Assembly: GCA_965372715.1 (NCBI GenBank)
Contig: CBDVDH010000011.1
Coordinates: 54,708 to 74,707, forward strand
Length of the DNA stretch: 20,000 nucleotides
Source: an uncultured bacterium
GTDB taxonomy: Bacteria > B130-G9
Direction of reading: 5' to 3'
Below the pieces are notes generated by a model. The model worked only from the letters and a program-made list of their open reading frames with translations, was not told the DNA's origin and made no database searches. This document shows positions 4,023 through 20,000 of this stretch, piece after piece. Each line of letters starts with the position of its first letter. The first letter of the stretch is position 1. The position numbers and the translations under genes are program-made.

Positions 4023-4122
4023 ATACTTTTGTATGAGATAGCTGATCTGCTGTTATCTCCGAAGGAATCCTTGAAGAAAGCGAGTGTTACCTATGAATGT
4101 TCAGACTGCGAAACCCAATAGA

Positions 4123-4641
4123 TCATCTCCCGCGGTCGCCGCGCCGCCGGTCCCGAAACAGCATGAACCTGACGATGAGGTCAGCGGCCTTCCGAATTAA
4201 AACCGCCAACAACTTGTCGAGGAGAACCATCGGCCGTCCGACGAGGTAGGATGGATTCATGGACGCTAGAACCGCTCTTGAGAACGGCACGAAACCTACG
4301 TTCGGGATATGGGCGAGGCGCCTCAAAGAGCGCACGAGGCACGCCAGCGCAATAGCCCTGACGCCGACTCGCACTGCTTTCTCTTTTTGCAGCAGGACGC
4401 ATAGGGCGTAGCGTTCTACTCGCAGTTGCCTGACAAGCGACGGACTTAGGGCGAAGCTGACGGCGCCGACCCGCCGGGCAGTGATGATTCTCTGCACTCT
4501 ATCAAGGCCTTCAAGGCCTCTTGCGATGTCATGCTGCGCGCAGAGCGTGATCGATACATCGGGCACGAGGCGCAGAGTGTCTGCAATTGCCTCTCGAAGG
4601 TGATCGATGTCCGAGGTCAATAGTATCAACGCTTTTGACAA
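4123..4641 (-). CDS. Hypothetical protein, weak resemblance to the N-terminal domain of GT9 (heptosyltransferase-like) proteins
   Basis: From TTG 4641: SKALILLTSDIDHLREAIADTLRLVPDVSITLCAQ...VQRIIT...LVRQLRVERYALCVLL, an alternating beta/alpha pattern. Purine-rich AGAAGGGCGGGGG upstream. The longer track ORF (to 4953) runs through a REP element. Confidence 0.45.
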   Translation of the reverse strand: MSKALILLTSDIDHLREAIADTLRLVPDVSITLCAQHDIARGLEGLDRVQRIITARRVGAVSFALSPSLVRQLRVERYALCVLLQKEKAVRVGVRAIALACLVRSLRRLAHIPNVGFVPFSRAVLASMNPSYLVGRPMVLLDKLLAVLIRKAADLIVRFMLFRDRRRGDRGR

Positions 4642-4729
4642 CTGCCCCCGCCCTTCTGTTGAGAAAAAATCATATTGTGGCCGTAGTAGCCTCGCCAATT
4701 GCGCCAAATGCGCCAACGCATCTATTATA

Positions 4730-4753
4730 CTATAGCACGCGCTATAGCACGCG
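4730..4753. repeat. 12-bp tandem direct repeat next to a minus-strand TATAAT
   Basis: CTATAGCACGCG x2 (4730-4741, 4742-4753). The minus strand reads TATAAT at 4729-4724. Confidence 0.6.
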
Positions 4754-4816
4754 GCCGGACTTGTGTAGCGCAGGAGTCTCACCCAATAATCACATTGACG
4801 GAAGCTCGTTCTGGCT

Positions 4817-4986
4817 TTTTGGACTGCGGCGGCTTGACGCCGCTTTCTTTTTGGTGGTGGCCTGACACCACGCTCTGATAGACATCTATTGTGAACTTGG
4901 GGGCCGCGATCCGGAGAATAGGGCTTCCTCCAACAGTGTTCATGCCGCGGCAAGTCAAAGCGGCGTCAAGCCGCCGCACTCCAAAA
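4817..4986. repeat. REPIN/MITE-like element: two inverted 30-bp palindromic REP arms with a 110-bp spacer
   Basis: TTTTGGACTGCGGCGGCTTGACGCCGCTTT (4817-4846) and AAAGCGGCGTCAAGCCGCCGCACTCCAAAA (4957-4986) are 29/30 reverse complements. Each arm has an internal GCGGCG/CGCCGC stem. Confidence 0.8.
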
Positions 4987-5043
4987 TCACCCAATGGGTG
5001 CAACTCGCAGACGGACCCCTGTCAAACACATCACCTTTAGAAC

Positions 5044-5115
5044 GGGCGGTGTCTCAGACCTCGCCCCTACGCAACTGCAACGACTTATGACCCAGCCTCA
5101 GAAGGCCTGCCCCAC
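5044..5115 (-). repeat. Two degenerate GTAG/GTGG-type REP-like palindromes
   Basis: Minus strand GTAGGGGCGAGGTCTGAGACACCGCCC (5070-5044) and GTGGGGCAGGCCTTCTGAGGCTGGG (5115-5091). Confidence 0.5.
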
Positions 5116-5333
5116 ACCGATTGAGAGTCACCGCCTCGGATTATTCCGGTTACCGGTTATGTGGCCTCAGTCACAATGACTGTAAAATGAAGTGCGCTTT
5201 GAGCACAGGAGTGCCCGCGGCAAGCTGCAACAGATTCGCGATGGACGGGATTGGACCTCTATAAGCGGGCGCAGTATCCGCTCCCCTTTTCTCCTCTTCG
5301 CCGTTTGCCCCGCGGGGAACTTTTCTAGTGGTG

Positions 5334-5363
5334 TTGACGAAAAGCCAACGATGTTGCTATATT
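5334..5363 (+). promoter_or_regulatory. Putative sigma70 promoter of the signalling cluster
   Basis: TTGACG (5334-5339), 18-nt spacer, TATATT (5358-5363) with an extended -10 TG at 5355-5356. Confidence 0.5.
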
Positions 5364-5486
5364 ATGCTGGAGTTGATTTTGTGACTCAGATTCGGATACT
5401 GAGAGAGGTTTTTGTCGCGAACGACAATGGCAAGATTCGCGGGCGACTGTCAATAAATAAGGATATTATCCACCGGAGGGATATGA

Positions 5487-6596
5487 ATGGAAGACAGACT
5501 GGAACGCCCTCAGAAGCCTAAGGTGCTCATTGTTGATGATGAGGAGACGATCCTTAGGATGTTCAAGAACCAGTTCAGAAAGGACTACGAGATAGCCATC
5601 GCGGCCAGCGCGGAGGAGGGTCTGAAGATATTGGCTGATTTCGAGGCGGACGTAGTCGTCTCGGACCAGAAGATGCCTGGGATGAAGGGCGTTGATTTTT
5701 TGGTGCAGGTCAAGGTTACGCACCCCCATGCGGTGAGAATGCTCCTCACGGGCTATACGGATGCCGAGGTTGCAAAGGACGCCATCAACAAGGGCGAGGT
5801 TACTGCTTATATCGACAAGCCGTGGGAGCGGGACAAGCTCCGGCAGCTCATCAACAAGTCAATAGAGCAGCAGCAGCTGGTGCTCGGCAAGATGATGACG
5901 CACCTGGAGACCGAGATGCAGACGCAGTTTCATCGCGACTTCAAGGATGCCGGCATCAAGGTGGAGGCGCTGAGTTATGACGAGAAGCAGCTCGCGATCC
6001 GGAAGCGGCGGGAGGACTTTGTTGGAGCCTTCAAGCTGGGCGAGAAGGAATACGTTGTCGAGGCGTCGTTCGTGTTGTTCCCGCGGACGCCGAGGAATCT
6101 CTTCATGCGGGAGATAGCCAAGATTGCCAATACTCCCGAGGACCTCGCGGATATAGGCAAGCTGTTGGGCGACAAGGTTGAGACAGAGGTTCTTGACGTC
6201 CAGGGGACTTTCAAGTTCTGGTTCGAGACGCGAGCCATGTGGCGCCGGTCGCTGCGGGTGACCAGCAACGTTACTTATGCCACGAGATGGCCGATGAGTC
6301 GTGTCGATTTCAAGCGGCTCTATTCTGGAATGGAGACAGCGCTTCGGATTGGTCAGAAGATCGAGTCGCTGTCAAAGGCGTCTTTCCGAGGCGAGCGATT
6401 CAAGTTCACGATCGAACCGGTTTACATATTCGGCTCGTTGGACATAAGGAAACACAACAGAAACGTGTATCGATTCGATCAGTTTCTATACGGACACCCG
6501 ACCACATTGACTGGATCGCTCGTCGCCGCGGACCTGGGCGGCCTTTATGAGAACCTCGATCGCGAGAAGGACGTATTCCTGCGCGCCAGCGCTTAA
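5487..6596 (+). CDS. Response regulator: N-terminal receiver domain plus unrecognised ~240-aa C-terminal domain
   Basis: VLIVDDE, VVVSDQKMPGMKG (phosphoacceptor D), LLTGY, YIDKPW (HupR-like REC). SD GGAGGG 6 nt before the ATG. Confidence 0.85.
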   Translation: MEDRLERPQKPKVLIVDDEETILRMFKNQFRKDYEIAIAASAEEGLKILADFEADVVVSDQKMPGMKGVDFLVQVKVTHPHAVRMLLTGYTDAEVAKDAINKGEVTAYIDKPWERDKLRQLINKSIEQQQLVLGKMMTHLETEMQTQFHRDFKDAGIKVEALSYDEKQLAIRKRREDFVGAFKLGEKEYVVEASFVLFPRTPRNLFMREIAKIANTPEDLADIGKLLGDKVETEVLDVQGTFKFWFETRAMWRRSLRVTSNVTYATRWPMSRVDFKRLYSGMETALRIGQKIESLSKASFRGERFKFTIEPVYIFGSLDIRKHNRNVYRFDQFLYGHPTTLTGSLVAADLGGLYENLDREKDVFLRASA

Positions 6597-6743
6597 GGGC
6601 TCGGTGCACACATCCGAGACGTAGTTGCGCGGCAGTTTCTTCCCGAGCGTCAGGATGCCGGGCACATTTGTTCACGTGCTGCTGTTGTGTTTGAGAATGA
6701 GCGGACCTTGCCAGAAGTGAATCATGGGATATAGAGCGAGAAG

Positions 6744-7670
6744 TTGAGCGATAAGATCGATGAGGCAGTCGGGGGGCGTGTTCGTGAGGATGAGTCACCG
6801 ATCAGACCACTGGGCAAACGCCAGCAGTTTGCTGTTTCGGTTAGCACGGCTGCTGAGGTTTATCACGAGATAGGCAACGCCCTGAGTGTGCTCGTTCCCA
6901 AGCTAAGGCTGCTTAGACAGCATTTTAAGCAGATTACCGAGCTCTTGGGCGAGTTTGGCAGGATTGACCCCGACGCGCCTGCAACGGAGGTGAGGCGGGG
7001 CGTTCTCCGGTGTCGGAAGCTTGCCGATAGCGGCCCTGGAATTGACCGCCACATCAAGAAGGTGGCCGGCGCTTTTGATCCTTGCTTCAGAGAACTGGAA
7101 GTTGTCAAGATAGCGTCCGAGCATCTTAGGGGAGGGAAGAATGCTGGAACGGTTCGAGCGCCCATTGACGCTCGAGAAGAACTGGAACACATCGTTGACC
7201 TTTTCAAGGAACATCTCAAGGAAGTAGAGGGCATTGGGATCGACTTCGTGGAGGGTTGCAGCAAGAAAGGCGGTAAGTCGATTGAGATAGCCTGTACCCC
7301 CGAGGAGTTCTCATACATCCTTAAGAACCTCGTGCGCAACGCTGTCGATGCGATCAATGAGAAACGGTGCCTGGGCGGGTATAAGTCTGGTGAGGAACTC
7401 CAAATCCAGCTTGGGACGTCTAGGAGCGATGGCTATGCGCGGATAACGTGTCGAGACAATGGCATAGGGATGAACGAAAAGCTCAGGGAGAAGATCTTTG
7501 ACCCGTTCTTCACAACCAAGTCGCACTCGAAGGGGACTGGCGTGGGGCTCAGCATTGTCAAAGAGATCGTTGAGAAGCGAGGTGGCACGATCAAAGTGGA
7601 AACCCCGGGGGGTGAGACGATATTCGTCATCGATCTGCCCTTGCATGAAAGGTCTGGCGATGGAAAGTAG
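6744..7670 (+). CDS. Cytoplasmic histidine kinase without a sensor domain (HisKA + HATPase_c)
   Basis: H-box EVYHEIGNALS, N-box KNLVRNAVDAI, G1 DNGIGM, F-box IFDPFFTTK, G2 GTGVGLSI. TTG start is uncertain. No hydrophobic TM segment. Confidence 0.82.
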   Translation: MSDKIDEAVGGRVREDESPIRPLGKRQQFAVSVSTAAEVYHEIGNALSVLVPKLRLLRQHFKQITELLGEFGRIDPDAPATEVRRGVLRCRKLADSGPGIDRHIKKVAGAFDPCFRELEVVKIASEHLRGGKNAGTVRAPIDAREELEHIVDLFKEHLKEVEGIGIDFVEGCSKKGGKSIEIACTPEEFSYILKNLVRNAVDAINEKRCLGGYKSGEELQIQLGTSRSDGYARITCRDNGIGMNEKLREKIFDPFFTTKSHSKGTGVGLSIVKEIVEKRGGTIKVETPGGETIFVIDLPLHERSGDGK

Positions 7671-9156
7671 CGAGTCGCCCACGCGCTACAAGCTCTTGGT
7701 CGTTGATGATGAGCCTCATGTCCTTGAGACAATAATCGACGTTCTGGAGGATAGGGACCGGGACGGACAACTGGAGTTCTTCTCGGCCACAAGCGGTGAG
7801 GAAGCTCTCGAGATGCTCGAGGACCGTCAGGGCGAGATCGACCTCGTGCTTACTGACCAGCGAATGCCTGGCATGTCAGGCGCGGAGCTTCTGGAGATAA
7901 TCCACGAACGCTACCCGCTGATTGGTTCAATAGTCATCTCCGGTTTTGCTGAGTTTGACGACATGCGCAGCGCTTTCAGGTCTGGGATATTCGACTACAT
8001 CAAAAAACCCTATGACGAGGACCACCTGTGTGGGGTGGTCAAATCCTCGCTGGAGAAGACAGAGTTGAGGCGCCGTAATGCCCACCTGGTCGAGGAGTTG
8101 AAAGAGGCCAACCGATTACTCGAGCAACGTGTCAACGAACGCACTATGGACCTCAAAAATAGCCTCGAATGGCTGAAAAGCATGCAGCAGCAGCTGATCC
8201 AGTCGGAGAAGATGTCCTCGCTCGGGCAGCTGGTCGCTGGCATCGCACACGAAATCAACAACCCGGCGACGTCTGTCTATGCGGGAGCCGAGGCGCTGGA
8301 GAGTAACGTTGAGGAGCTGCTGATCTTTGTTGAGCGATACAAGGATTTGCTGAAGGCAACGCAAGACGGTGACACGGCTACGACCAAGGAGCTCACAGAG
8401 GAGCTTTCGGACGCGGAGGAAGACGTCGATTATCTTCTGGAGGAGGGCCTCCCGTGGAGCATCAGGTCGATGAAGGAGGGCGCGGTTCGGATAAAGGACA
8501 TTGTCCGCAATCTCAAGACGTTCTCGAGAGTCGATGAGGCTGAGGTGAAACACTCCGACGTCAACGAGGGCATCAGAACGACCGAGAAGCTCGTGCATCA
8601 TGAATTCAAGAACAGGATTGCCGTCAACGAGGAGTTCGGAGACATTCCGCAGCTTGAATGCTACCCTGGTCAGCTCAATCAGGTCTTCATGAACTTGCTG
8701 GTCAACGCGGCTCAGGCGATTGAAGGTGAGGGCACAATATGGATAAAGACCATTGCGGAGAACAACAGCATTGTCGTGAAGATAAAGGATACGGGAAGCG
8801 GGATACCGGAGAACTCGCTCAAGGACATTTTCAACCCGTTTTTTACGAGTAAGCCTGCCGGTCAGGGTACGGGGCTTGGCCTCTCGATAAGTTACAGTAT
8901 TGTCAAGAAGCATGGCGGGGACATTAGGGTCGAAAGCGAGCCGGGCGCCGGCACGGAGTTCACGATCATCCTGCCATTCGATGGCATTCAGAAGGCCAAG
9001 GAGATGGCGAAGGAGGATAGGGATTCCGCTCGCAGTCAGTATGAGTTCATGGATGTATCGCGCATCGAGGAACTTGAAAGGGAGCTCGCCCAGATAGATG
9101 CAGGCCCGGGCACAGCCGACGAGCGGCCCGGAGAACCGAGCGACGATAGCGATTAA
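7660..9156 (+). CDS. Hybrid response regulator-histidine kinase (REC-coiled coil-HisKA-HATPase_c)
   Basis: LLVVDDE, LTDQRMPGMSG, YIKKPY; QSEKMSSLGQLVAGIAHEINNP; NQVFMNLLVNAAQAI; DTGSGIP; FFTSK; GTGLGLSI. ATG 7660 (GAAAGG upstream, overlapping the previous stop) is preferred over the track start at 7498. Confidence 0.92.
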   Translation: MESSESPTRYKLLVVDDEPHVLETIIDVLEDRDRDGQLEFFSATSGEEALEMLEDRQGEIDLVLTDQRMPGMSGAELLEIIHERYPLIGSIVISGFAEFDDMRSAFRSGIFDYIKKPYDEDHLCGVVKSSLEKTELRRRNAHLVEELKEANRLLEQRVNERTMDLKNSLEWLKSMQQQLIQSEKMSSLGQLVAGIAHEINNPATSVYAGAEALESNVEELLIFVERYKDLLKATQDGDTATTKELTEELSDAEEDVDYLLEEGLPWSIRSMKEGAVRIKDIVRNLKTFSRVDEAEVKHSDVNEGIRTTEKLVHHEFKNRIAVNEEFGDIPQLECYPGQLNQVFMNLLVNAAQAIEGEGTIWIKTIAENNSIVVKIKDTGSGIPENSLKDIFNPFFTSKPAGQGTGLGLSISYSIVKKHGGDIRVESEPGAGTEFTIILPFDGIQKAKEMAKEDRDSARSQYEFMDVSRIEELERELAQIDAGPGTADERPGEPSDDSD

Positions 9157-9168
9157 ACCGTTCGCATG

Positions 9169-9522
9169 TAGGCCGACCTGGCGGTCAAAGAGCTGCCTCG
9201 CCGCGTAATAGATGCCAAAGACGATCGCCGGCACGAATAGCAGGTTAGCTGCGATTGCGACGTCAACGCTTCTGCCGAAAAGAAGCATCAAGATGCCGGC
9301 CGCTACGTGCCACAGAGGCGGGTAGAACGTGCCTTCCCCCTGAAGCGTCAGAAGCCGTCCAGTATCCAGCCGTGAAATCGCCTCACTTGCCTCGATAGCA
9401 TCCAGGACGTGAAACGCTGGGTCCCACACTGGGGGCGTGTCGTCCAAAGCCAGCCAGACGATGTTTCCGACCGCCCAGAAGACAATCAGTAAGCCGCATA
9501 GAAGGTGATCTTCCCGCGCCAT
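9169..9522 (-). pseudogene. 3'-truncated ArnT/PMT-like (GT-C, GT39/GT83-type) membrane glycosyltransferase fragment
   Basis: About 118 aa: TM helix, then WLALDDTPPVWDPAFH, FYPPLWH, and NLLF...IVFGIYYAARQLFDRQVGL, the typical N-terminus of these enzymes. The frame then continues only as the antisense of the kinase gene. Confidence 0.65.
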
Positions 9523-9701
9523 CGCACGATCCCCGCAAAAGGCCCTATGCTTCTGCTGTGTTTGATGAGAATGCTCTAACTGTGGCGTGATCTCAAGTAA
9601 TTATGCCGATTGTCGTTGCCAAGACGGCTATCAGGCTGTTACTCTTAGAAGGATCAATGGCGCTGCAAAATGAATCCAGAGCATCTTGAGAAGGAGCGGA
9701 C

Positions 9702-11031: not shown

Positions 11032-13174
11032 AACTGGGGGCCTATATATCGTCCTGATAAGTGTTCATGGTCTGATCCGCGGCCATGACCTGGAGTTAGG
11101 TCGTGACGCCGACACCGGTGGTCAAATCACGTATGTGATGGAGTTGGCCCGCGCGCTTGCCGGTCATCCAGCGGTTGGGCGAGTGGACCTTCTTACGCGC
11201 CTCGTTTTGGACCCTATGACCGACGATGACTACGCGAAGTCAGTGGAGGAAATCGCGCCCGGGGCCTACATCATACGGGTTCCCTGCGGGCCGAGGCGCT
11301 ACTTGCGAAAAGAGGTTATTTGGCCATATCTTGATAGTTTCTCAGACCAAGCGCTGTTGCACATTCGCGAGGTCGGCAGGTTGCCCGATATTGTCCACAG
11401 TCATTATGCCGATGCAGGCTGGGTGGGCTCGCACTTGGCGGGCCTTCTAGGGGTGCCACTGGTGCACACAGGCCACTCGCTTGGGCGCGTCAAGTTTCGG
11501 CTGCTGATGGACACGGGCATGGGACGCCAGGCCGTTGAGAAGCGATACAACATAACTCAGCGGATCGAGGCGGAGGAGATTGCTCTTGACACCGCCGCAT
11601 TGGTTATAGCCAGCACACGTCAAGAGGTTGAGCAGCAGTATAGCCTTTATGACAATTACAGCCCCCGAAGCATGATAGTGATACCGCCAGGTGTTGATCT
11701 CAGGCGATTCCATCCCCCACACCGAGGTTGGAAGGAGCCTCCGATCAAGAGGGAGGTCCGCCGGTTTCTGAGAGACGTCCGTAAGCCAATGATACTAGCC
11801 ATCTCGCGACCTGATGCTCGCAAGAACATAGCGACACTTATACGGGCCTATGGGCAAAACGAGCGCCTGCGGGAGCTCGCGAATCTTGTTATCGTCGCCG
11901 GCACGCGGGATGACATAGAAACTGCTGAGAAAGAAGCTCGGAGTGTACTGACAGAGCTTCTTCTTCAGATTGACCGTTGGGACCTGTATGGGAGCGTAGC
12001 ATATCCGAAAACACATAAGCCAAATGATATCCCAGACCTATATAGACTTGCTGCCCAGACCAAGGGCATCTTCATCAATCCTGCGCTCACAGAGCCTTTC
12101 GGGATTACGTTGCTGGAGGCGTCGGCCAGCGGCCTTCCCATTGTGGCTACCGAGGATGGCGGGCCCCGGGATATCCTCGCGCGGTGCAGGAATGGCTTTT
12201 TAATCGACCCATTGGATGTGGAGGGAATGTCCGATGCGTTGCTTGGTGGTATCAGTGACCGCAAGAGGTGGTATAGGTGGTCCAGAAACGGTGCTAGGCG
12301 AGCGCCACGGTATTTCTCCTGGTCAAGCCACGTCAAAAGATACTTGGGGGAGCTGAAGAAGATGGTCCGAAGGTCGCGTAAACTGCATGTCATCAAAGGG
12401 TTAAAGAGCCGGCTTCCGGTTTCCGACCGTATTATCGTATGTGACGTTGATGGTACGCTGACTGGTGACGAGGAGGCCCTCGGAAAACTGTTACGCCTGT
12501 TATCAGAGACAAAGGTGAGCGTTAGCCTTGGCGTGGCAACCGGCCGGCATATCCGTAGCACGATTAAGGTGCTAAAGGAGTGGAACGTGCCCATGCCTGA
12601 TTTTCTGATCACGTCAGTTGGCACTCAGATACACTACGGGCCAAAACCGGTTGAGGACACTAGTTGGGCAAGGCAAATCGAATACCGCTGGGATCCAGAA
12701 GGAGTGCAAGACGCCATGAGTCATTTCGGGGGACTCAAACTACAGCCCAGAGATGCTCAGTCAATCCACAAGATCAGCTATTTCGCTGATCCGAAGAAGG
12801 CTCCAAGCATCCGCCAGATGCGAAGTCATCTGAGAAAGCTCTGCCTGCACTGCAATCTTGTCTATTCGCATGGTATGTTCCTCGATTTGCTGCCTATTAG
12901 AGCTTCTAAGGGCGGGGCACTGCGTTACTTCGCATACAGATGGGGCGTACCACTGGAGCGAATTCTTGTGGCCGGAGACTCTGGCAACGACATCGAAATG
13001 CTGGTCGGTGACACTCTGGGTGTGGTTGTAGGGAATTTCAGTCCTGAGTTGAAAAAGCTCCGTGGGCGGGAGAAGGTTCATTTCGCCAGTGGCCATCACG
13101 CAAACGGGATTATAGAGGGGATCGAGCATTACAGCTTTCTTACGTCGGATTTGCCTAAAGAGGACGATAGATAA
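11024..13174 (+). CDS. sps: Sucrose-phosphate synthase (GT4) fused to a HAD sucrose-phosphatase domain
   Basis: [67 protein letters not shown]-terminal HAD motifs DVDGTL, ATGR, ASKG, GDSGND. Confidence 0.92.
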
Positions 13175-15564
13175 TGCCCAATGAACTGGAGGTTTTTGTA
13201 GAAGACAACCGCGAGGATGTCCATCTGCTGTTGAAGCATTTCTTCTCCCTGGGCAAATCATTCCTACTTCATTCGGAGATATGGGACCAGTTTGAGCATT
13301 TTTGCGAGGTAACCAGCAAGAAGCATTTGCGCGAGAGCGTTCTGGGGCAGACTCTTCGGCTGACTCAGGAGGCGGTCCTCAAGGAGCCCCTTATGTATCT
13401 TGCCGAGCGCCCGAGAGTCGCACAATGGAGATACACCTTACTCGACGCGGTATCATTGACAGTAAAGCGCCTTCCTCTTGAGGCATTCTTAGAGGTCAAG
13501 GAGTGCTTGGTGAATGGTTCAGCACAGGACGATCAATGGGCGCTTGAGATCGATCTTGGGCCCTTCAATCGCGATTTCTTCAAGCTCAAGGAAGCGAGGT
13601 CCATTGGGCGCGGGGTAGAGTTTCTGAATAGGCGGCTCTCAAGCGAGCTCTTCCGCGATCTTGACAAGGGCGGCAAGCTCTTGCTGGATTTCCTTCGGGT
13701 CCATCAATGTAAGGGTGTTCAGCTGATGCTCAATGGCAGGATTGCCGACTTAGCCGAGCTGCGACACGCCCTGCGCCTTGCTGAGGAGACTCTCTCCGAG
13801 GTTCCCCATGAGAGTCCGTGGGCTCAGTTCAGCAGCGGGATGAACTCGCTTGGCTTTGAGCCTGGGTGGGGCAAAAATGCAAAGATAGTTCGAGAGACGC
13901 TGGGCCTTCTATCAGACATCCTTGAGGCGCCGGAACCCGTTCATTTAGAGCGCTTTTTGGCTAGCATTCCGATGATTTTCAACCTGGTTATCCTCTCGCC
14001 ACACGGATACTTCGCTCAGAGCAATGTTCTGGGCCGCCCTGACACGGGAGGCCAGATTGTTTACATTCTCGACCAGGTGCGTGCCCTGGAGAAGGAAATG
14101 CGGCGCCGAATCGCGCGGCAGGGGCTGAGTATTGAGCCTCAGATACTTGTCGTGACGCGGCTGATACCCGAGGCAGACGGAGCTACCTGTGATCAGCGAG
14201 ATGAGGCGATCACTGGGACGAAGAATGCGCGGATACTCAGGGTGCCTTTCCGCTATTCGGACCGCCAGGTTGTCCCACACTGGATATCTCGGTTCGAGGT
14301 TTGGCCGTTTCTTGAGCGCTTCGCTGCGGATGTTGAGAAAGAGGTTTTGGCTGAGTTGCAGGGGCGGCCCGACCTGATTATGGGTAATTATTCGGACGGT
14401 AACCTCGTTGCGTCGCTGCTGTCACAGCAGCTGGGCGTGACGCAGTGCAACATAGCGCACGCGCTTGAGAAGCCGAAACTGCTGCACGCCGACCTATACT
14501 GGAAGGACAACGACCCACAGTATCATCTTGGGTGCCTCTTCACGGCGGACCTGATCTCGATGAATACGGCAGATTTCATCATCTCGAGCACGTATCAGGA
14601 GATCGCCGGCACAGAAGACTCAGTGGGCCAGTATGAGAGCTACAGCGCATTCACGATGCCCGGCCTATACAGGGTAGTCAACGGTATCGACATATTTGAC
14701 CCCAAGTTCAATGTTGTTTCACCTGGCGTGGACGACTGCTTCTATTTCCCATATACGGAGGCCAAGCGGCGCCTCACGGGGCTGGCAGAGGAACTCGAAG
14801 CACTCGTATATGGCGTTGACCCGCGGCCCGACGCCAGAGGCGTTCTGAAGGATCGGCGAAAACCGCTCATTTTCACAATGGCCCGGCTTGACAAAGTCAA
14901 GAACATCACCGGATTGGTCAAGATGTTCGGCGAATGCCCCAAGCTCCGGGAGGAGGCCAACATGTTGCTCGTAGCGGGCTACATCAACCCGTCTGATTCT
15001 CTCGATGACGAGGAGAGCTCGCAAATAAAACTGATGCACTCGCTGATCGAGTCCTATGAGCTCGACGGGCAGGTGCGCTGGATCGGCGCTCAATTGAGGA
15101 AGGACCTGGCCGGAGAACTCTATCGCTATGTTGCGGATCGAAAGGGCATATTCGTTCAGCCCGCGCTGTTTGAGGCGTTTGGGCTGACGGTGATTGAGGC
15201 GATGGTTACCGGCTTGCCGACGTTTGCGACGTGCTATGGTGGGCCGCTGGAGATCATCGAGCCGGGAGTCTCCGGCTTCCACATAGACCCCACACATTCG
15301 GGCGAGGCGGCTCAATTCATAGCAGATTTTCTCATGAGATGCCGCAGCGATCCGAAGTTCTGGGAGAACATCTCAAAAGGCGGCATCTCCCGTGTAAGGG
15401 CTCGCTACACCTGGAAGCTGCACGCCGAGCGGCTCATGACTTTTGCTCGAGTATATGGCTTCTGGAAACACGCAACCAATCTCGAACGTGATGAGACTCG
15501 TCGTTATCTTCAGATGTTCTACGGCCTCCAGTTCCGCAAGCTCGCAGACGCTCTCCCGCATTAA
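13174..15564 (+). CDS. sus: Sucrose synthase (GT4)
   Basis: [95 protein letters not shown]. 796 aa. TAATG coupling with sps. Confidence 0.95.
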
Positions 15565-15599
15565 GCCGCAGTGGCCCCTCCGCATCGCCGACGGGATTT

Positions 15600-15619
15600 G
15601 CGCCAACGTTAGCTGGCGC
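15600..15619. terminator. Small hairpin between convergent genes
   Basis: GCGCCAAC-GTTA-GCTGGCGC, 7 of 8 bp pair. There is no clear U-tract, so the terminator role is uncertain. Confidence 0.25.
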
Positions 15620-15623
15620 GGCG

Positions 15624-16082
15624 CTAGTTCTTTGCGAGGATAAAAAGCACGATCTGCAAGATAATCACCAAACCAAAGCCACTTGCCAAGATTATCGTCT
15701 GCCTTTTTGATGCTCTCTTAAGTGCTTGATCCAGTCCACCAAGCCGCTCCAGAATCTCAGCATCGCCGTCCTCACTGACCGTTCTGATAGTCTGGAGACC
15801 TTCCTCCAATAATTGCTTTGTACTTCCAGCCAGCTGATCAAGTTCATTTAGTCTCTCGAGGATTTTGGCGCTGCCGATCTGATTGACGGCTTTGATGATT
15901 TGGTGGCTTTCCTCGGATAATTGTCTTGTACTTTCAGCCAGGCCAAGAAGCTCGGAGCTTGCCTTCTGTAGTTCCTCTTTTGCGGTTCGGTACGACTCAA
16001 CCTGTTTGCAGAGCTCGTCAAGGTTGTTAACCAACTCCTGCGCCTGGTCTTGGAGTTTTGTGATTTCTTGTTGTGTTGGCAT
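15624..16082 (-). CDS. Hypothetical coiled-coil protein with a single C-terminal transmembrane helix (tail-anchored)
   Basis: Helical, Q/E/L-rich body; ends KRASKRQTIILASGFGLVIILQIVLFILAKN. Starts 10 nt after the helicase stop on the same strand. Confidence 0.75.
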   Translation of the reverse strand: MPTQQEITKLQDQAQELVNNLDELCKQVESYRTAKEELQKASSELLGLAESTRQLSEESHQIIKAVNQIGSAKILERLNELDQLAGSTKQLLEEGLQTIRTVSEDGDAEILERLGGLDQALKRASKRQTIILASGFGLVIILQIVLFILAKN

Positions 16083-16092
16083 AAGAATCTCG

Positions 16093-19000
16093 TTATGAAT
16101 TCAAGACATTAACCGCTCTTCTCGCCAGCTTGCCTATGGACCAAAGCGCGGGGCAGTAGAGCATGTTTTCGTCCATGTCGGGATAATTCATAAGGGTCCT
16201 GGCAAAATCCGGATCGTCTATCTCTTCGATTAATCTCGGAACATAATCCTCGTAAAGGCTGCTACTACGGATATAGACCTTTAATAGCAACCAGCTCAAC
16301 ACTTCGTATATCGAATATCTGGGAATTTTGTACTTTTCAAGCGCAGATTGATGACTCGCCTTGATGTCTCCTAATGCCGCTTCAACATCCGAATTTGAGC
16401 AGTAGATTTCGGAAAGTGCGCGCAAGAATAGAAGTCCAGGGTGGTCAGGATATGATTCAAGGTAGCGAGAGACCTGGCCACGAACCCAAGCCGCGTCATT
16501 CGGTGATCGCACGCCGCCAATCGGCTCTCCGGATTCCGAAATAACGCCGCCATCAAAGATCATCTTGAGATTGTGGAAGGATCCCACTTCCTTTAAGACC
16601 TGCTGAATCTCTTCATAATACTTTGTCTCCAAATAGCGAAGAATCCTGTCTCTAATGCAGGCGTCTTGATCATTTACATTCAGCTTAGCGGCTTCTTCCG
16701 CCATCGAGAGAAGCTCCCGGAAAGCGCGACGCCGGCCTTTCTCGACAGTGTCGTAAATGAAGTCAATGAGTACTTCAGCCGCTCTGCGCACAAAGCTGGG
16801 TTGGTCGCTCTGCCAAAGCGGCAATTCAATATGCTGCATGAGTTTTTCTTTTTCCGCCGCCACGCGCCCGCGATTATATCCCTCTACATATTTGCAGAAC
16901 CTGTCAACGACACGCTCCTTTGAAGTGCCAGCAATGACGAGGCGGAATTGGCTTGCGGCGAAATCAATGGTGTAGTCCTCGATTACGCCGAGCAACAAGA
17001 GCCGGTATACAGCTTTTTCACAATTGTTCTTTTTAAGATCCTTCCCGTCCCAGTCCGGGCACGCAACATTTACTCTCTTCTCCGTTCCAAAGTCCCCAAT
17101 TTCACCCATGATATTGTCAACATCATCAAGCTCGTCTTTTATGCCACGAAATGAATTGAGATGGAACCACATCGCGCGAGTAACATCGTCGTCTGTTTCC
17201 CAATTTCGCTCTTTCTCCATAATGAGTTTCAGTTCTTCTATGGTGGCAGCAGGGTCTAAAAGGGCAGCCGTCCTGGCTTTGAAATCATTGGATAATATCA
17301 GAATGCACTGTGCCCTTTTTCCGTCGCGCCCAGCTCTACCGGCTTGTTGATAAAACGACTCTATGGAGTGCGGTAGGCCCAAATGAACCGTATATCTGAT
17401 ATTGGGTTTATCAATCCCCATGCCAAAGGCTTTTGTGGCAACCAGGAGCGGGAATTTGTTATTTTTGAAATCGCTGGCATTCTGTTTTTTTGTCAGCCTC
17501 CAATCGCTATCGGAGAAACCACCGGGCGTTCCGCCGGAATAGCATTCTGCCGATATTCCAAGCTTGGACGAGATGTACTGCTTGTTCCGAGTTATACCAT
17601 ACTGCCCATTTATGTGTGGACAGAAGATAATCCCGCACTCTGTCTTCTCCTTTCGAGGACTGAAAAAATGGTCAGCAGTTGTCTGAAAAACGTTCGGTAA
17701 CGTCTTCTCTAGAATAGTCCGCAGAGTGCCCTGTTTCTGATTGGATCTACGTTTGTGCACTGCGAAATGCAGCTCTTCTCTGTCAAAAGTCTTGGGAGTA
17801 ACAATCGCATCGTCCGTTATTTGCAGTTCTCGCTGCACGTCGCGCAACACCACGTGTGACGCTGTGCCCGTTAGCGCCAACAATGGAGGAGTGCGGCCCG
17901 GGGATCTGCAACACTCTCTGGTTGTACGTCCGATGTTCAGATAAGCGGTCTTAAACTCATGTCCCCATTCAGAAACACAATGCGCTTCGTCTATCGCAAT
18001 GACCGAAATCGGGATAATCACAGTCAGCTCTGCAAGACTGTTTCGGAATTCGTCGCTTTGCATTCTCTCTGGGGAGATATAACATAGAACGTACTCGCCG
18101 TTGCCAAATGCTTCAATGAGTTTTGAACGAATCTGCCCCTGTCCCTCACCTAGACCGGCGATTGCCTCAACGCGATCAATGCCGATTCGAGCCAGGTTAT
18201 CTTTCTGATCGTCCATAAGGGCTATAGTTGGGCTGATCACGATTGGAAGGCCTGGCAGTAGCAGGGAGGCTAGTTGAAAGGCAAGCGATTTGCCCGCGCC
18301 AGTAGGCAATAGAACCACAGCGTCCTTTCCCTGTAGCGCCCGTGTGATAGCGTCAAATTGCCCTTCTCGGAACGTCTCGTGTCGAAAAATATACTTCAGA
18401 AAATAACGCAGCGTATCTTCAGAAGCATCAGGAACTGTCGCAGGTTCTGTTGGTCCCTCGTGATGTGCGATCGTATGTGGGAAGGAGATATCCTGAATGA
18501 TGAATCGGCGCCCGTTTGTTATCAGATTCTCGTTGAACGTGATTACTGGAGCGGTGGTTGAGTCCGAGCCGTTTAGCGTCTCCAATTTGAACCCGGCGAA
18601 ACTGCCTTCGATGCAATACAGATCGAACAAATGACGCACCAATTCCCCCAAGTCCTTGAGGGCGGATTTAACGATGGTCTCCGTCTCATGTCGTGTGAAG
18701 CAAACGGAATCAGCATCGAAGCAAATTCTTGTTTGCTCGGATGTTATTGGGGCAGCACCGGCGAGCAAGCTTTCAATCACCACGATCTGAACTTGGTGTG
18801 CGAGCTTCACCGCCAACAGATATTTGCTGATTGCAGAGAGACTATCAAACGCTTCAGTCTTCGCTTCCTGTATAGTTTCATGCAATTCTCGCAGATTGGA
18901 GCCGCATTTTTCGGCAACTTCGTGATTCAGGATTCTAATGCACCGATATCCGTTTTTCTGCAGTTGTGCGTCGCGAATCCCCATAGCTCCCCCATCGAGC

Positions 19001-19653
19001 ATGGCCTTAGCCGGAGCATCTATCTCAACCACAATCCATTTCGTCGGGAGGGTAATGAGGAAATCTACTCGCTGAAGAGCAGCCGGGCCTTTAATGCCCT
19101 CCACTAGGCTGGAGAAAAGAACTTGCGGCAGGACGAATCTCTTGTAGTAAGGCCCCAAGTATTGCGGTAGGATTCTCTCGTAGAAGTCATGCTCCGGGTT
19201 GCTATCAAACCATGCCGTTGTTTCTCTGCATGGAGTCGCCAGAGCGAAATAGACATTATTGACTATGTCCTTCACATCGAACTTCTCGAAGTGGAATAGT
19301 TCCTTCAATTTCCCTTCAAGGGACGGGGAGAGAAGCGTAACTCGGCCTCTTGTGAGTATTTTCCTAGCAATGAGAAGCACTCTCTTCGGGACTTCTGGCA
19401 GTCCAACTTCGGATGTTGCTGCCGCAGGGAAGTCCAACCGCCACTGACCAAAGCGACGCCGCCAGTCTTTTTCCCATGATGTTCGTCTGTTCGCCGCATC
19501 GAGCAATTCCTTGGGAACTGCCATGTTCTGGAAGAAGAGGGTGCAATAGTCGTCGAATCTTGCACGCGCCTTCAATTCAACGGGCAATATCCATTCATCG
19601 TCCGTCATTGGATTATTGGCGCGTGCTGCTTTCTCTGTCTTCTCGGAGGTCAT
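16093..19653 (-). CDS. Large atypical RecQ-family SF2 DNA helicase with an N-terminal DUF559/Vsr-like nuclease-fold region and a long helical C-terminus
   Basis: FREGQ, LLPTGAGKS, ISPTIALMDDQ, IDEAHCVSEWGHEF, LALTGTA, VATKAFGMGIDKPNIR, YQQAGRAGRDG. N-terminal PQV..RVDF..IVVEID..RD..L..GY..IRI. The track start at 19734 lies inside the tRNA; real candidates are ATG 19674, 19653 or 19608. Confidence 0.85.
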   Translation of the reverse strand: MTSEKTEKAARANNPMTDDEWILPVELKARARFDDYCTLFFQNMAVPKELLDAANRRTSWEKDWRRRFGQWRLDFPAAATSEVGLPEVPKRVLLIARKILTRGRVTLLSPSLEGKLKELFHFEKFDVKDIVNNVYFALATPCRETTAWFDSNPEHDFYERILPQYLGPYYKRFVLPQVLFSSLVEGIKGPAALQRVDFLITLPTKWIVVEIDAPAKAMLDGGAMGIRDAQLQKNGYRCIRILNHEVAEKCGSNLRELHETIQEAKTEAFDSLSAISKYLLAVKLAHQVQIVVIESLLAGAAPITSEQTRICFDADSVCFTRHETETIVKSALKDLGELVRHLFDLYCIEGSFAGFKLETLNGSDSTTAPVITFNENLITNGRRFIIQDISFPHTIAHHEGPTEPATVPDASEDTLRYFLKYIFRHETFREGQFDAITRALQGKDAVVLLPTGAGKSLAFQLASLLLPGLPIVISPTIALMDDQKDNLARIGIDRVEAIAGLGEGQGQIRSKLIEAFGNGEYVLCYISPERMQSDEFRNSLAELTVIIPISVIAIDEAHCVSEWGHEFKTAYLNIGRTTRECCRSPGRTPPLLALTGTASHVVLRDVQRELQITDDAIVTPKTFDREELHFAVHKRRSNQKQGTLRTILEKTLPNVFQTTADHFFSPRKEKTECGIIFCPHINGQYGITRNKQYISSKLGISAECYSGGTPGGFSDSDWRLTKKQNASDFKNNKFPLLVATKAFGMGIDKPNIRYTVHLGLPHSIESFYQQAGRAGRDGKRAQCILILSNDFKARTAALLDPAATIEELKLIMEKERNWETDDDVTRAMWFHLNSFRGIKDELDDVDNIMGEIGDFGTEKRVNVACPDWDGKDLKKNNCEKAVYRLLLLGVIEDYTIDFAASQFRLVIAGTSKERVVDRFCKYVEGYNRGRVAAEKEKLMQHIELPLWQSDQPSFVRRAAEVLIDFIYDTVEKGRRRAFRELLSMAEEAAKLNVNDQDACIRDRILRYLETKYYEEIQQVLKEVGSFHNLKMIFDGGVISESGEPIGGVRSPNDAAWVRGQVSRYLESYPDHPGLLFLRALSEIYCSNSDVEAALGDIKASHQSALEKYKIPRYSIYEVLSWLLLKVYIRSSSLYEDYVPRLIEEIDDPDFARTLMNYPDMDENMLYCPALWSIGKLARRAVNVLNS

Positions 19654-19695
19654 AGTGTTACTTGACCAAATCATAAGGCGAAATGCCGATCGGTA

Positions 19696-19780
19696 TGCCG
19701 GGGGGGGGAATCGAACCCCCACGGTGCTAAGCACCGCAGGATTTTGAGTCCTGTGCGTCTACCTGTTCCGCCACCCCGGC
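19696..19780 (-). tRNA. tRNA-Leu (anticodon CAA), CCA not encoded
   Basis: GCCGGGG TGGCGGAACAGGTAGACGC A CAGGA CT CAA AA TCCTG CGGTGCTTAGCACCG T GGGGG TTCGATT CCCCC CCCCGGC A: perfect acceptor, anticodon and T stems, long variable arm, discriminator A. Confidence 0.96.
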
Positions 19781-19816
19781 TGTATAAGACCGATCTGTCT
19801 GTTGTTCAGAGCCTGC

Positions 19817-19845
19817 AATCTATTGTTCACGACGGGAAAGGTCAA
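19817..19845 (-). promoter_or_regulatory. sigma70 promoter of tRNA-Leu
   Basis: Minus strand TTGACC (19845-19840), 17-nt spacer, TAGATT (19822-19817). Predicted start about 30 nt before the tRNA. Confidence 0.7.
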
Positions 19846-19901
19846 GAGCGATTGAGCGGGGACGCACGGCGCTGGCTCGAACGCAAGTCGGTGTAGCCTG
19901 C

Positions 19902-20000
19902 GTAGGGGCGGGGGGGTGGCCGCCCCGACATGGGTGCGTTTGCAAAAAGGAGTGGGGGGGGCGGGCCCCCCCCCCCCCCCCCCCACACCCAGCCCACCCC
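19902..20000 (+). other. Degenerate GTAG-type REP followed by homopolymer-rich, probably low-quality contig-end sequence
   Basis: GTAGGGGCGGGGGGGTGGCCGCCCC (19902-19926), then long G runs and a C run of about 19 nt. Confidence 0.45.

Follow-up and report, generated by a model that had tools for sequence, protein, structure and literature searches.

What kind of system is formed by a RecQ-type helicase with a nuclease-like extension and a small, apparently membrane-anchored protein that is encoded directly behind it? The question is raised by two adjoining minus-strand genes in a 20,000-nt stretch of DNA (hereafter the window) from an uncultured bacterium (GTDB lineage Bacteria; B130-G9; assembly GCA_965372715.1, contig CBDVDH010000011.1, positions 54,708 to 74,707 of the forward strand). 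The large gene encodes a 1186-aa helicase and the small gene a 152-aa coiled-coil protein (Table 1), and together they are a genuine conserved two-gene module. On sequence grounds, we see about an even chance that the pair is an unnamed, horizontally mobile, two-component helicase-nuclease module with incoming or otherwise foreign DNA (that of phages, plasmids, or other mobile elements) as its target.

The gene pair and its two proteins

The pair was followed in a scan of GTDB (one genome per species, with the family alignment as the query), which yielded at least 80 loci. About 32 of the 80 have the specific C-terminal domain of the large protein, the remainder being plain RecQ-like cores, and pairing was judged in 28 of these 32, excluding two loci at a contig edge (L008 and L010), one that is split (L023), and one that is broken (L032). 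In every one of the 28, which span 11 phyla, a same-strand open reading frame (ORF) of 104-304 aa starts between -29 and +38 nt from the helicase stop, and in 26 of them it overlaps that stop. All 28 of these partner ORFs are, by eye, heptad-rich and coiled-coil-like, and 22 of them have a hydrophobic helix at the C-terminus. The same pair, with a 4-nt overlap, is found as annotated genes on the Rhodothermus marinus plasmid pRMAR01 (L081). A partner profile, built from the small protein of the window and 15 relatives and iterated five times over 14,240 six-frame ORFs (those of the 80 loci plus the window), matched 20 ORFs, all 20 of which are the gene right after the helicase, and no other ORF. 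For profile members from the earlier rounds a match is built in; this is not so for the six (E 4e-5 to 8e-4) that the last round added. A preliminary description of this DNA, made from its letters, had asked whether the small gene co-occurs with the helicase, and it does so well beyond close relatives.

The same description had placed the two minus-strand genes 10 nt apart and beside a tRNA-Leu, and ARAGORN, the ORFs, and a reading of the sequence all agree with this layout. The large ORF as listed (16093..19734, minus strand, 1213 aa) opens with a GTG that falls inside the tRNA; the usable starts are ATG 19674 (1193 aa) and ATG 19653 (1186 aa, MTSEK). The latter was taken as the start because the database copy of the protein (P0003) is 1186 aa long and the closest relative (P0004) opens with MTSEN.

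Table 1. Features of the gene pair in the window, and matches to defence genes in the neighbourhood of the pair at related loci.
Sequence	Feature	Position	Strand	Basis or remark
Window	Small gene, 152-aa coiled-coil protein	15624..16082	(-)	ORF, relatives, hydropathy
Window	Predicted transmembrane tail anchor of the small protein, aa 130-148, IILASGFGLVIILQIVLFI	15639..15695	(-)	Kyte-Doolittle 19-residue window 2.78; segment conserved in relatives
Window	10-nt spacer, helicase stop (TAA) to small-gene ATG	16083..16092	(-)	Sequence read
Window	Large gene, nuclease-like RecQ-family helicase, 1186 aa	16093..19653	(-)	ORF, domain searches, homologues, AlphaFold2 model
Window	Family-specific C-terminal domain, ~aa 796-1186	16096..17268	(-)	Homologue alignment and structure models
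Window	RecQ-type SF2 helicase core, ~aa 413-795	17269..18417	(-)	Motifs, Pfam/NCBIfam, PDB and Foldseek matches
Window	DUF559/Vsr-like nuclease-fold domain, ~aa 150-265 of the 1186-aa protein	18859..19206	(-)	Pfam, family profile vs PDB 3hrl
Window	tRNA-Leu (anticodon CAA)	19696..19780	(-)	ARAGORN; directly upstream of the helicase gene, same strand
L006	Druantia DruE (1555 bits)	within 6 kb		
L011	Type I restriction-modification; PDC-S14, S40, S48	within 6 kb		
L014	Azaca ZacB and ZacC	within 6 kb		
L018	HEC-09	within 6 kb		
L024	Retron-type reverse transcriptase with WYL protein	within 6 kb		
L025	dGTPase	within 6 kb		Directly upstream
L043	MkoA	within 6 kb		Partial match
L059	Type II restriction-modification	within 6 kb		
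L061 (Chryseobacterium limigenitum)	Complete type I Zorya, ZorB/ZorA/ZorC/ZorD (ZorD 1338 bits)	14287-21218		~400 nt after the small gene

The helicase motifs of the large protein are intact (Walker A LLPTGAGKS, motif II DEAHCVSEWGH, and motif VI AGRAGRD), DEAD and Helicase_C domains are present, and the RecQ-family model TIGR00614 matches at 259.7 bits, above its cut-off of 219.8. A profile of 70 family sequences matches the catalytic core of E. coli RecQ (PDB 1oyw) at E 2.3e-77, and an AlphaFold2 model built on this 70-sequence alignment (pLDDT 88, pTM 0.84) retrieves as a whole only RecQ-type helicases in Foldseek (RecQ, RECQL5, WRN, and BLM). Housekeeping RecQ was rejected as an identity for the protein: TIGR01389 scores 276.4 bits against a cut-off of 640.2 and NF008279 scores 217.1 against 1015, and RecQ_Zn_bind (PF16124), RQC (PF09382), and HRDC (PF00570) gave no match in the large protein at E ≤ 0.1, in a search in which the canonical RecQ of one related locus (L005), as a positive control, shows all three domains. 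Both the full RecQ core and the distinction from housekeeping RecQ, by the lack of a Cys4 zinc site and of HRDC, had been claimed in the preliminary description, and both are confirmed. In comparison with RecQ (E. coli core 1oyw; TIGR00614), the window protein has the same two RecA-like helicase domains with all motifs, but it differs in having no Cys4 zinc site, RQC, or HRDC by Pfam, in ~410 extra N-terminal residues with a predicted DUF559 fold, in ~390 C-terminal residues that match no solved fold, and in its obligatory small partner gene.

The candidate nuclease lies within the ~410 residues that precede the core. In the window protein, the match to DUF559 (PF04480; aa 203-268) reaches 19.7 bits, just under the Pfam cut-off of 20.6. 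PF04480 is precomputed for most of 120 listed full-length homologues, often together with PF01396 (a topoisomerase-type zinc ribbon) and PF18741, and the 70-sequence family profile matches a DUF559 structure (PDB 3hrl) at E 3.4e-7, with the signature VDF ... VE.DGGQH ... R ... L ... G..V.R in the pairwise alignment. At the level of the family, the assignment of a DUF559 domain can be regarded as solid. Among 28 distant loci, 25 have the motif D..ExDGxxH, His included, and 12 have the zinc ribbon; the ribbon (CPxCG ... YGC ... C) is also found in P0004 (81% identity) and in most homologues.

The region that follows the core is specific to this family. It is modelled as a helical hairpin, a winged-helix-like unit (with a beta hairpin), and a helical bundle carrying the motifs GRRRA and YLESYPDHPGLL. 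When the last ~390 residues were modelled separately from 22 diverse sequences, the pLDDT was 86.8, and a Foldseek search of this model against 350,542 PDB chains gave no match at E ≤ 0.001 (best E 0.17, TM-scores up to 0.22); scores for the domain in the protein atlas were below 0.9 and uninformative. The novelty attributed earlier to this C-terminal sequence is upheld, but its length is corrected from ~350 to ~390 aa, and in addition to helices it includes the winged-helix-like beta hairpin. The domain measures 354-407 aa in 21 of 22 loci measured and 544 aa in L022. Its profile matches 2137 protein clusters at 50% identity (1066 of them at E ≤ 1e-30), and in the best 150 of the 2137 it stands at or near the protein end; most of these proteins are 1100-1300 aa long, and the shorter ones look like fragments.

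The small protein is composed of a conserved 70-aa N-terminus, two copies of a 36-aa repeat (21/36 identical), and the C-terminal hydrophobic helix. Fifteen relatives were found by BLASTP (45-80% identity), which differ mainly in repeat number, and because they share the conserved 70-aa N-terminus, the small ORF is considered a real gene. Three of these relatives are on contigs with the sizes of those of helicase homologues (12345, 4333, and 15218 nt). No match of the small protein above coiled-coil level was found in Pfam, NCBIfam, or PADLOC (best PADLOC E 3.6e-4), and its nearest clusters in the protein atlas are unnamed hypothetical proteins (score 0.92). The tail helix is preceded by KRASKRQ and followed by AKN only. 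From the KRASKRQ ahead of the helix and the three residues behind it, the small protein is predicted to be tail-anchored, with its N-terminus and bulk in the cytoplasm, and the small tail-anchored membrane protein put forward earlier stands as a prediction.

Horizontal spread and mosaic divergence

In a maximum-likelihood tree of 29 helicases, the phyla (11 in all) are mixed. The window helicase groups with those of an unclassified bacterial metagenome-assembled genome (MAG), a Woesearchaeota archaeon, a Bacillota member, and a Verrucomicrobiota member (95-99% support), the Dehalococcoidia and Bryobacterales helicases are sisters (100% support), and a Clostridium helicase is nested in a mainly Bacteroidota group. 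Within the window, the GC content is 0.477-0.503 over 15.5-19.5 kb and 0.515-0.615 in the rest, in agreement with the earlier remark that the block is more AT-rich than the surrounding genes. Because phyla mix in the helicase tree, and because the block is lower in GC than the remainder of the window, the module is, by these indications, horizontally mobile; the horizontal acquisition proposed in the preliminary description is retained as mobility. Separately, the helicases of L024 (a Tenacibaculum MAG, Flavobacteriaceae) and L061 (Chryseobacterium limigenitum, Weeksellaceae) are near-identical (terminal branches 0.077 and 0.067), which suggests a recent transfer between families.

The pair is flanked by a convergent sucrose synthase gene (13174..15564), the stop of which is 59 nt from that of the small gene. 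Relatives of this sucrose synthase have 97%, 86%, and 84% identity, the last of them from Candidatus Coatesbacteria, a little-known lineage in or next to which the window probably originates. The 97% relative, the helicase P0004, and the small protein P0125 are each on a contig of 12345 nt. No helicase match is on a contig sized like the 132-kb one that holds the 84% relative, and these contig sizes hint that the pair is absent beside it.

The pair is far more diverged, and more unevenly, than the neighbouring sucrose synthase with its 97% relative. In the numbering of the 1193-aa form, the window protein and P0004 are 65% identical in the N-terminal region (aa 28-425; 257/398), 97% identical in the core (aa 426-1010; 570/585), and 65% identical in the tail (aa 1011-1193; 119/183), and the window partner is 63% identical to P0125. 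For P0005, the corresponding values are 78%, 65%, and 60%. This reciprocal pattern is that which segmental exchange between alleles would produce. As read from the aligned proteins, it shows two units whose turnover is independent of the motor, one being the N-terminal module and the other the tail with its partner. The joint divergence of tail and partner is compatible with physical contact between them, without being proof of it, since the two adjoin in the DNA.

Possible functions and related systems

If the pair acts on foreign DNA, the two proteins could divide the work as follows. The small tail-anchored protein would reside in the inner membrane, its coiled coil extending into the cytoplasm, and would tether or regulate the large protein, and the RecQ-type motor of the latter would load on and unwind DNA. 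In typical members of the family, the N-terminal topoisomerase-type zinc ribbon and the DUF559 domain would bind and cut that DNA, and the family-specific C-terminal domain would probably provide the surface on which the partner docks or exerts regulation. We infer that the two proteins bind each other, that they are located at the membrane, that they act on DNA, and that they are protective. Because 6 of the 28 partners end in a short basic tail and have no membrane helix, the conserved role of the partner would reside in its coiled coil, which suggests binding or regulation; the same six speak against a mainly pore-forming, killing role of the small protein.

The neighbourhoods of the pair are suggestive of enrichment near defence genes. 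Flanking ORFs (≥90 aa, greedy non-overlapping, within 6 kb) were scanned with PADLOC at a threshold of E ≤ 1e-40, with generic matches set aside; the 28 loci gave 228 such ORFs (none from L021). A match occurs near the pair in 11 of the 28 loci; those of L001 (a Ser/Thr kinase) and L005 (the canonical RecQ) are generic, which leaves 9/28 with a specific match (Table 1). As controls, the same procedure was applied to 26 of the plain RecQ-like loci of the scan (220 ORFs). Matches occurred in five of them, and here too two were generic (the remainder of the anchor itself, and a kinase); the specific matches are a partial PDC-M37B in one locus and a patatin in two, both from Planktothrix. In L061, two membrane-plus-helicase-nuclease units, the pair and Zorya, stand side by side.

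A number of results weigh against an action of the module on foreign DNA. The excess of defence neighbours (9/28 vs 3/26) is weak (Fisher one-sided p = 0.067), the excess of recognised ("hallmark") systems (6/28 vs 0/26, p = 0.015) concerns a category drawn post hoc, and the controls were drawn mostly from cyanobacteria and Chloroflexota, and thus from taxa other than those of the pair; enrichment near defence genes, which the preliminary description had proposed to examine, is suggestive only. About two thirds of the loci, including the window, have no known defence gene nearby (the 13 neighbouring ORFs of the window gave no PADLOC match at E ≤ 1e-8), and several loci (L002, L009) sit among housekeeping genes. 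For the C-terminal domain, only three distant matches were found in 72,556 plasmids and no relative among 50,697 phage records, and the module is not obviously carried by plasmids or phages. The near relative with the 97% sucrose synthase probably has the pair at the same place, as read only from the equal lengths of the three contigs, and the six partners with a basic tail show that anchoring is not universal.

The window copy itself belongs among these opposing points. In its nuclease motif (VDF...VVEIDAPAK), D197, E210, and D212 are kept; the His, which is ≥90% conserved in 70 homologues and is catalytic in Vsr-type nucleases, is replaced by Lys216, and two more conserved positions are changed. 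The zinc ribbon is cleanly absent from the window copy and from P0005. The nuclease-motif His is likewise missing from P0004 and P0005. The nuclease-fold extension of ~400 aa that had been described for this protein thus stands for the family (PF04480; 3hrl, E 3.4e-7), but in this copy the motif is degenerate. In the absence of the ribbon and the nuclease His, the window copy may be a helicase-only sensor or blocker, or else a weakened variant. A fuller version of the foreign-DNA reading, which we advance tentatively and put somewhat short of an even chance, is that of a widespread immune module: a membrane-tethered adaptor would hold the nuclease-RecQ helicase at the inner surface to intercept entering DNA, the N-terminal region and the tail with its partner would be exchanged as cassettes between close strains, like the swapping of restriction specificity, and the His-less, ribbon-less form of the window would block or sense rather than cut.

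Further genes were observed around the pair. L001 and L012 encode integrases, and in L017, from Flavobacterium frigidimaris DSM 15937, the pair is adjoined by genes of a conjugative transposon. In L001, the closest GTDB relative, the upstream region (4279-9600) encodes Hsp70-like ATPase, Ser/Thr kinase, FHA, GYF_2, and DUF6804 proteins, the helicase is 1303 aa long with ~70 extra residues before the zinc ribbon, and a tyrosine recombinase gene is located downstream (15753-16658). On the Rhodothermus plasmid (pRMAR01 record, 54230-70994), a TnpB gene on one side and a CARF-HEPN gene (Csx1-like, 329 bits) on the other enclose the pair, with a replication initiator gene ~4 kb upstream. A canonical RecQ (4118-5935; HRDC, RQC, and zinc-binding) directly follows the pair in L005 (a Woesearchaeota archaeon), where the partner has no membrane helix. 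In L004 (Phycisphaerales), the small gene is followed by a gene for a HIRAN-domain protein (5439-5849; weak PDC-M03B match) and, ~590 nt past its end, by a tRNA-Gly; the helicase of this locus has 1595 aa and a much longer N-terminus. RNase_T/DEDDh-type exonuclease genes are near the pair in L011 of Alcanivorax sp. 1008 (4289-4867 and 8085-8915), L007 (7486-8745), and L081 (3468-4172, annotated as RNase H-like), and such an exonuclease may be an optional third component.

Several of these neighbours could accompany a DNA-repair or recombination paralogue, that is, a RecQ-family helicase-nuclease for damaged or stalled DNA that has the coiled coil as a structural or regulatory subunit and no role on foreign DNA. 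The canonical RecQ of the archaeal locus, the HIRAN-domain gene of L004, the RNase_T exonuclease genes in L007 and L011, and the RNase H-like-annotated gene in L081 are in line with this, as are the intact RecQ-family core and the ~two thirds of loci that have no defence neighbour, some of which are among housekeeping genes. We nevertheless consider it unlikely, given that the patchy, phylum-mixing distribution and the lower GC content misfit a core repair gene, that the divergence between genomes otherwise 97% identical is cassette-like, and that 9/28 loci have defence-system neighbours. A membrane anchor is also, to our knowledge, unusual for a repair helicase.

A further alternative is a membrane-associated machine for the DNA traffic of the cell itself (natural transformation uptake or conjugative DNA), in which the anchor would put the helicase-nuclease at a membrane channel. 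Such a machine appears very unlikely: neither competence nor type IV secretion genes adjoin the pair consistently, its distribution is sporadic, and 6/28 partners have no anchor, although most (22/28) are tail-anchored and conjugative-transposon genes adjoin the pair in L017.

With regard to the module acting on foreign DNA, the combination of parts had been said to be unlike those of named systems, and the comparisons made here bear this out. In PADLOC-DB v2.0.0, all strong matches of the large protein (among the 25 best of 41 matches) are within aa 418-908, so that the models cover the helicase core only, and there is no model for the non-helicase parts or for the partner. A literature search, from which subscription journals were mostly out of reach, found no description of this helicase with this partner. 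The best PADLOC match (1e-84) is to DpdF, from the Dpd system of 7-deazaguanine DNA modification, by way of the shared RecQ-like core; DpdF was rejected, as NF041063 scores 163.9 bits against a cut-off of 550 and no dpd genes are beside the window pair. No other dpd genes scored in the flanking ORFs of related loci, where the Dpd models that did score matched unrelated helicases.

PsyrTA/RqlHI is likewise a two-gene unit around a RecQ-like helicase, and the PADLOC model of PsyrT matches the core of the window protein (E 5.5e-63). The match is confined to that core (model positions 7-349 of 689 only) and PsyrA is not among the PADLOC matches of the partner, and membership was rejected on this basis. 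The partner in that system, PsyrA, carries the annotation DprA (a DNA-processing protein) in a published genome table (PMC11232893). PsyrTA has neither an N-terminal nuclease domain nor a membrane partner. By analogy, the window pair might be a toxin-antitoxin-like or addiction module, in which a genotoxic helicase-nuclease is restrained by the small protein and the carrier mobile DNA is thereby stabilised. The PsyrT match speaks for this, the small gene is tightly coupled downstream, and the contexts are in part mobile (the integrases of L001 and L012, the conjugative-transposon genes of L017, and the Rhodothermus plasmid); however, the match reflects the shared RecQ core only, PsyrA as annotated in the genome table (PMC11232893) is quite unlike a 152-aa coiled-coil membrane protein, and the window keeps the partner although its nuclease motif is degenerate. 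We regard an addiction module as quite unlikely.

Hhe and Hachiman resemble the window pair in that they combine a helicase motor and a nuclease, in one protein or operon. Hhe carries a Vsr/DUF559-type nuclease, and we know of no membrane-anchored partner in either Hhe or Hachiman. No Hhe or Ham model is among the 25 best of the 41 PADLOC matches. In the account of Hachiman in PMC12278908, a sensor helicase, HamB, controls an effector nuclease, HamA; Hhe is annotated in the genome table as a DUF4011 protein, a different helicase class from the RecQ type of the window (PMC11232893).

Zorya, as outlined in PMC11946911, has a membrane complex, ZorAB, with a long cytoplasmic coiled-coil tail that recruits DNA-degrading effectors, alongside ZorC and the helicase-nuclease ZorD, and its logic is similar to that proposed here, with a membrane component bearing a cytoplasmic coiled coil and a helicase-nuclease on DNA. 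The small protein weakly matches the tail region of ZorA1 (E 3.6e-4, 17 bits), at a level expected for any coiled coil. In contrast to Zorya, the window pair has neither a MotA/MotB-like motor nor a peptidoglycan-binding part, its predicted anchor is a single helix, its helicase is of the RecQ type rather than SNF2, and its nuclease domain is DUF559 rather than Mrr. Membership of Zorya was rejected, with this 17-bit match as the only one and no MotA/MotB-like genes in the window, and both Zorya and Hachiman are best regarded as analogies for the mechanism. What appears to be new is the recognition of the pair as a conserved module.

Should the pair prove protective against phages or plasmids, it would be a compact two-gene system in at least 11 phyla (2137 clusters of its signature domain). 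Its motor would be of the RecQ type, for which PsyrT and DpdF are so far the main examples in defence. As a minimal model, the pair could help to show how a membrane-anchored coiled coil is coupled to a motor that degrades DNA, which is also at issue in the much larger Zorya machine. The mosaic (core 97%, both ends and partner ~65%) points to possible sites of specificity or partner contact. If it were instead a repair factor, it would be an unusual membrane-linked RecQ paralogue.

Other features of the window

The tRNA-Leu is the single tRNA that ARAGORN predicts in the window. The preliminary description had pointed to tRNA 3' ends as integration hotspots, but integration here was not borne out: there is no integrase among the window ORFs (the window extends only 220 nt past the tRNA, and anything farther on that side is out of view), a search of 15300-20000 gave no direct repeat of the 3' end of the tRNA and none that involves the tRNA at all, and a tRNA is present within the fetched DNA of only 2 of 32 related loci. 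A classical tRNA-integrated island was rejected for these reasons, and the tRNA-Leu is context, integration there being unsupported.

The other genes of the window encode subunits of 2-oxoacid:ferredoxin oxidoreductase (vor), response regulators, histidine kinases, a pfkB kinase, and sucrose-phosphate synthase/phosphatase. Promoter-like sites (6 vs 4.1 expected) and terminator-like sites (5 vs 4.5 expected) are no commoner in the window than in shuffled sequence. A minus-strand ORF at 8116-9522 (468 aa) has a DUF6541 match of 31.5 bits at aa 26-126 and overlaps the hybrid histidine kinase gene at 7498-9156 (plus strand) by ~1 kb; the minus-strand gene within it is probably much shorter than the ORF. 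Upstream of the tRNA, at 19954-20000, a run of G followed by C (GGGGGGGGGGGGCCCGCCCCCCCC) precedes a T-rich segment, and a terminator scan flags the minus strand here; the G/C run could be a hairpin or an assembly artefact near the contig end.

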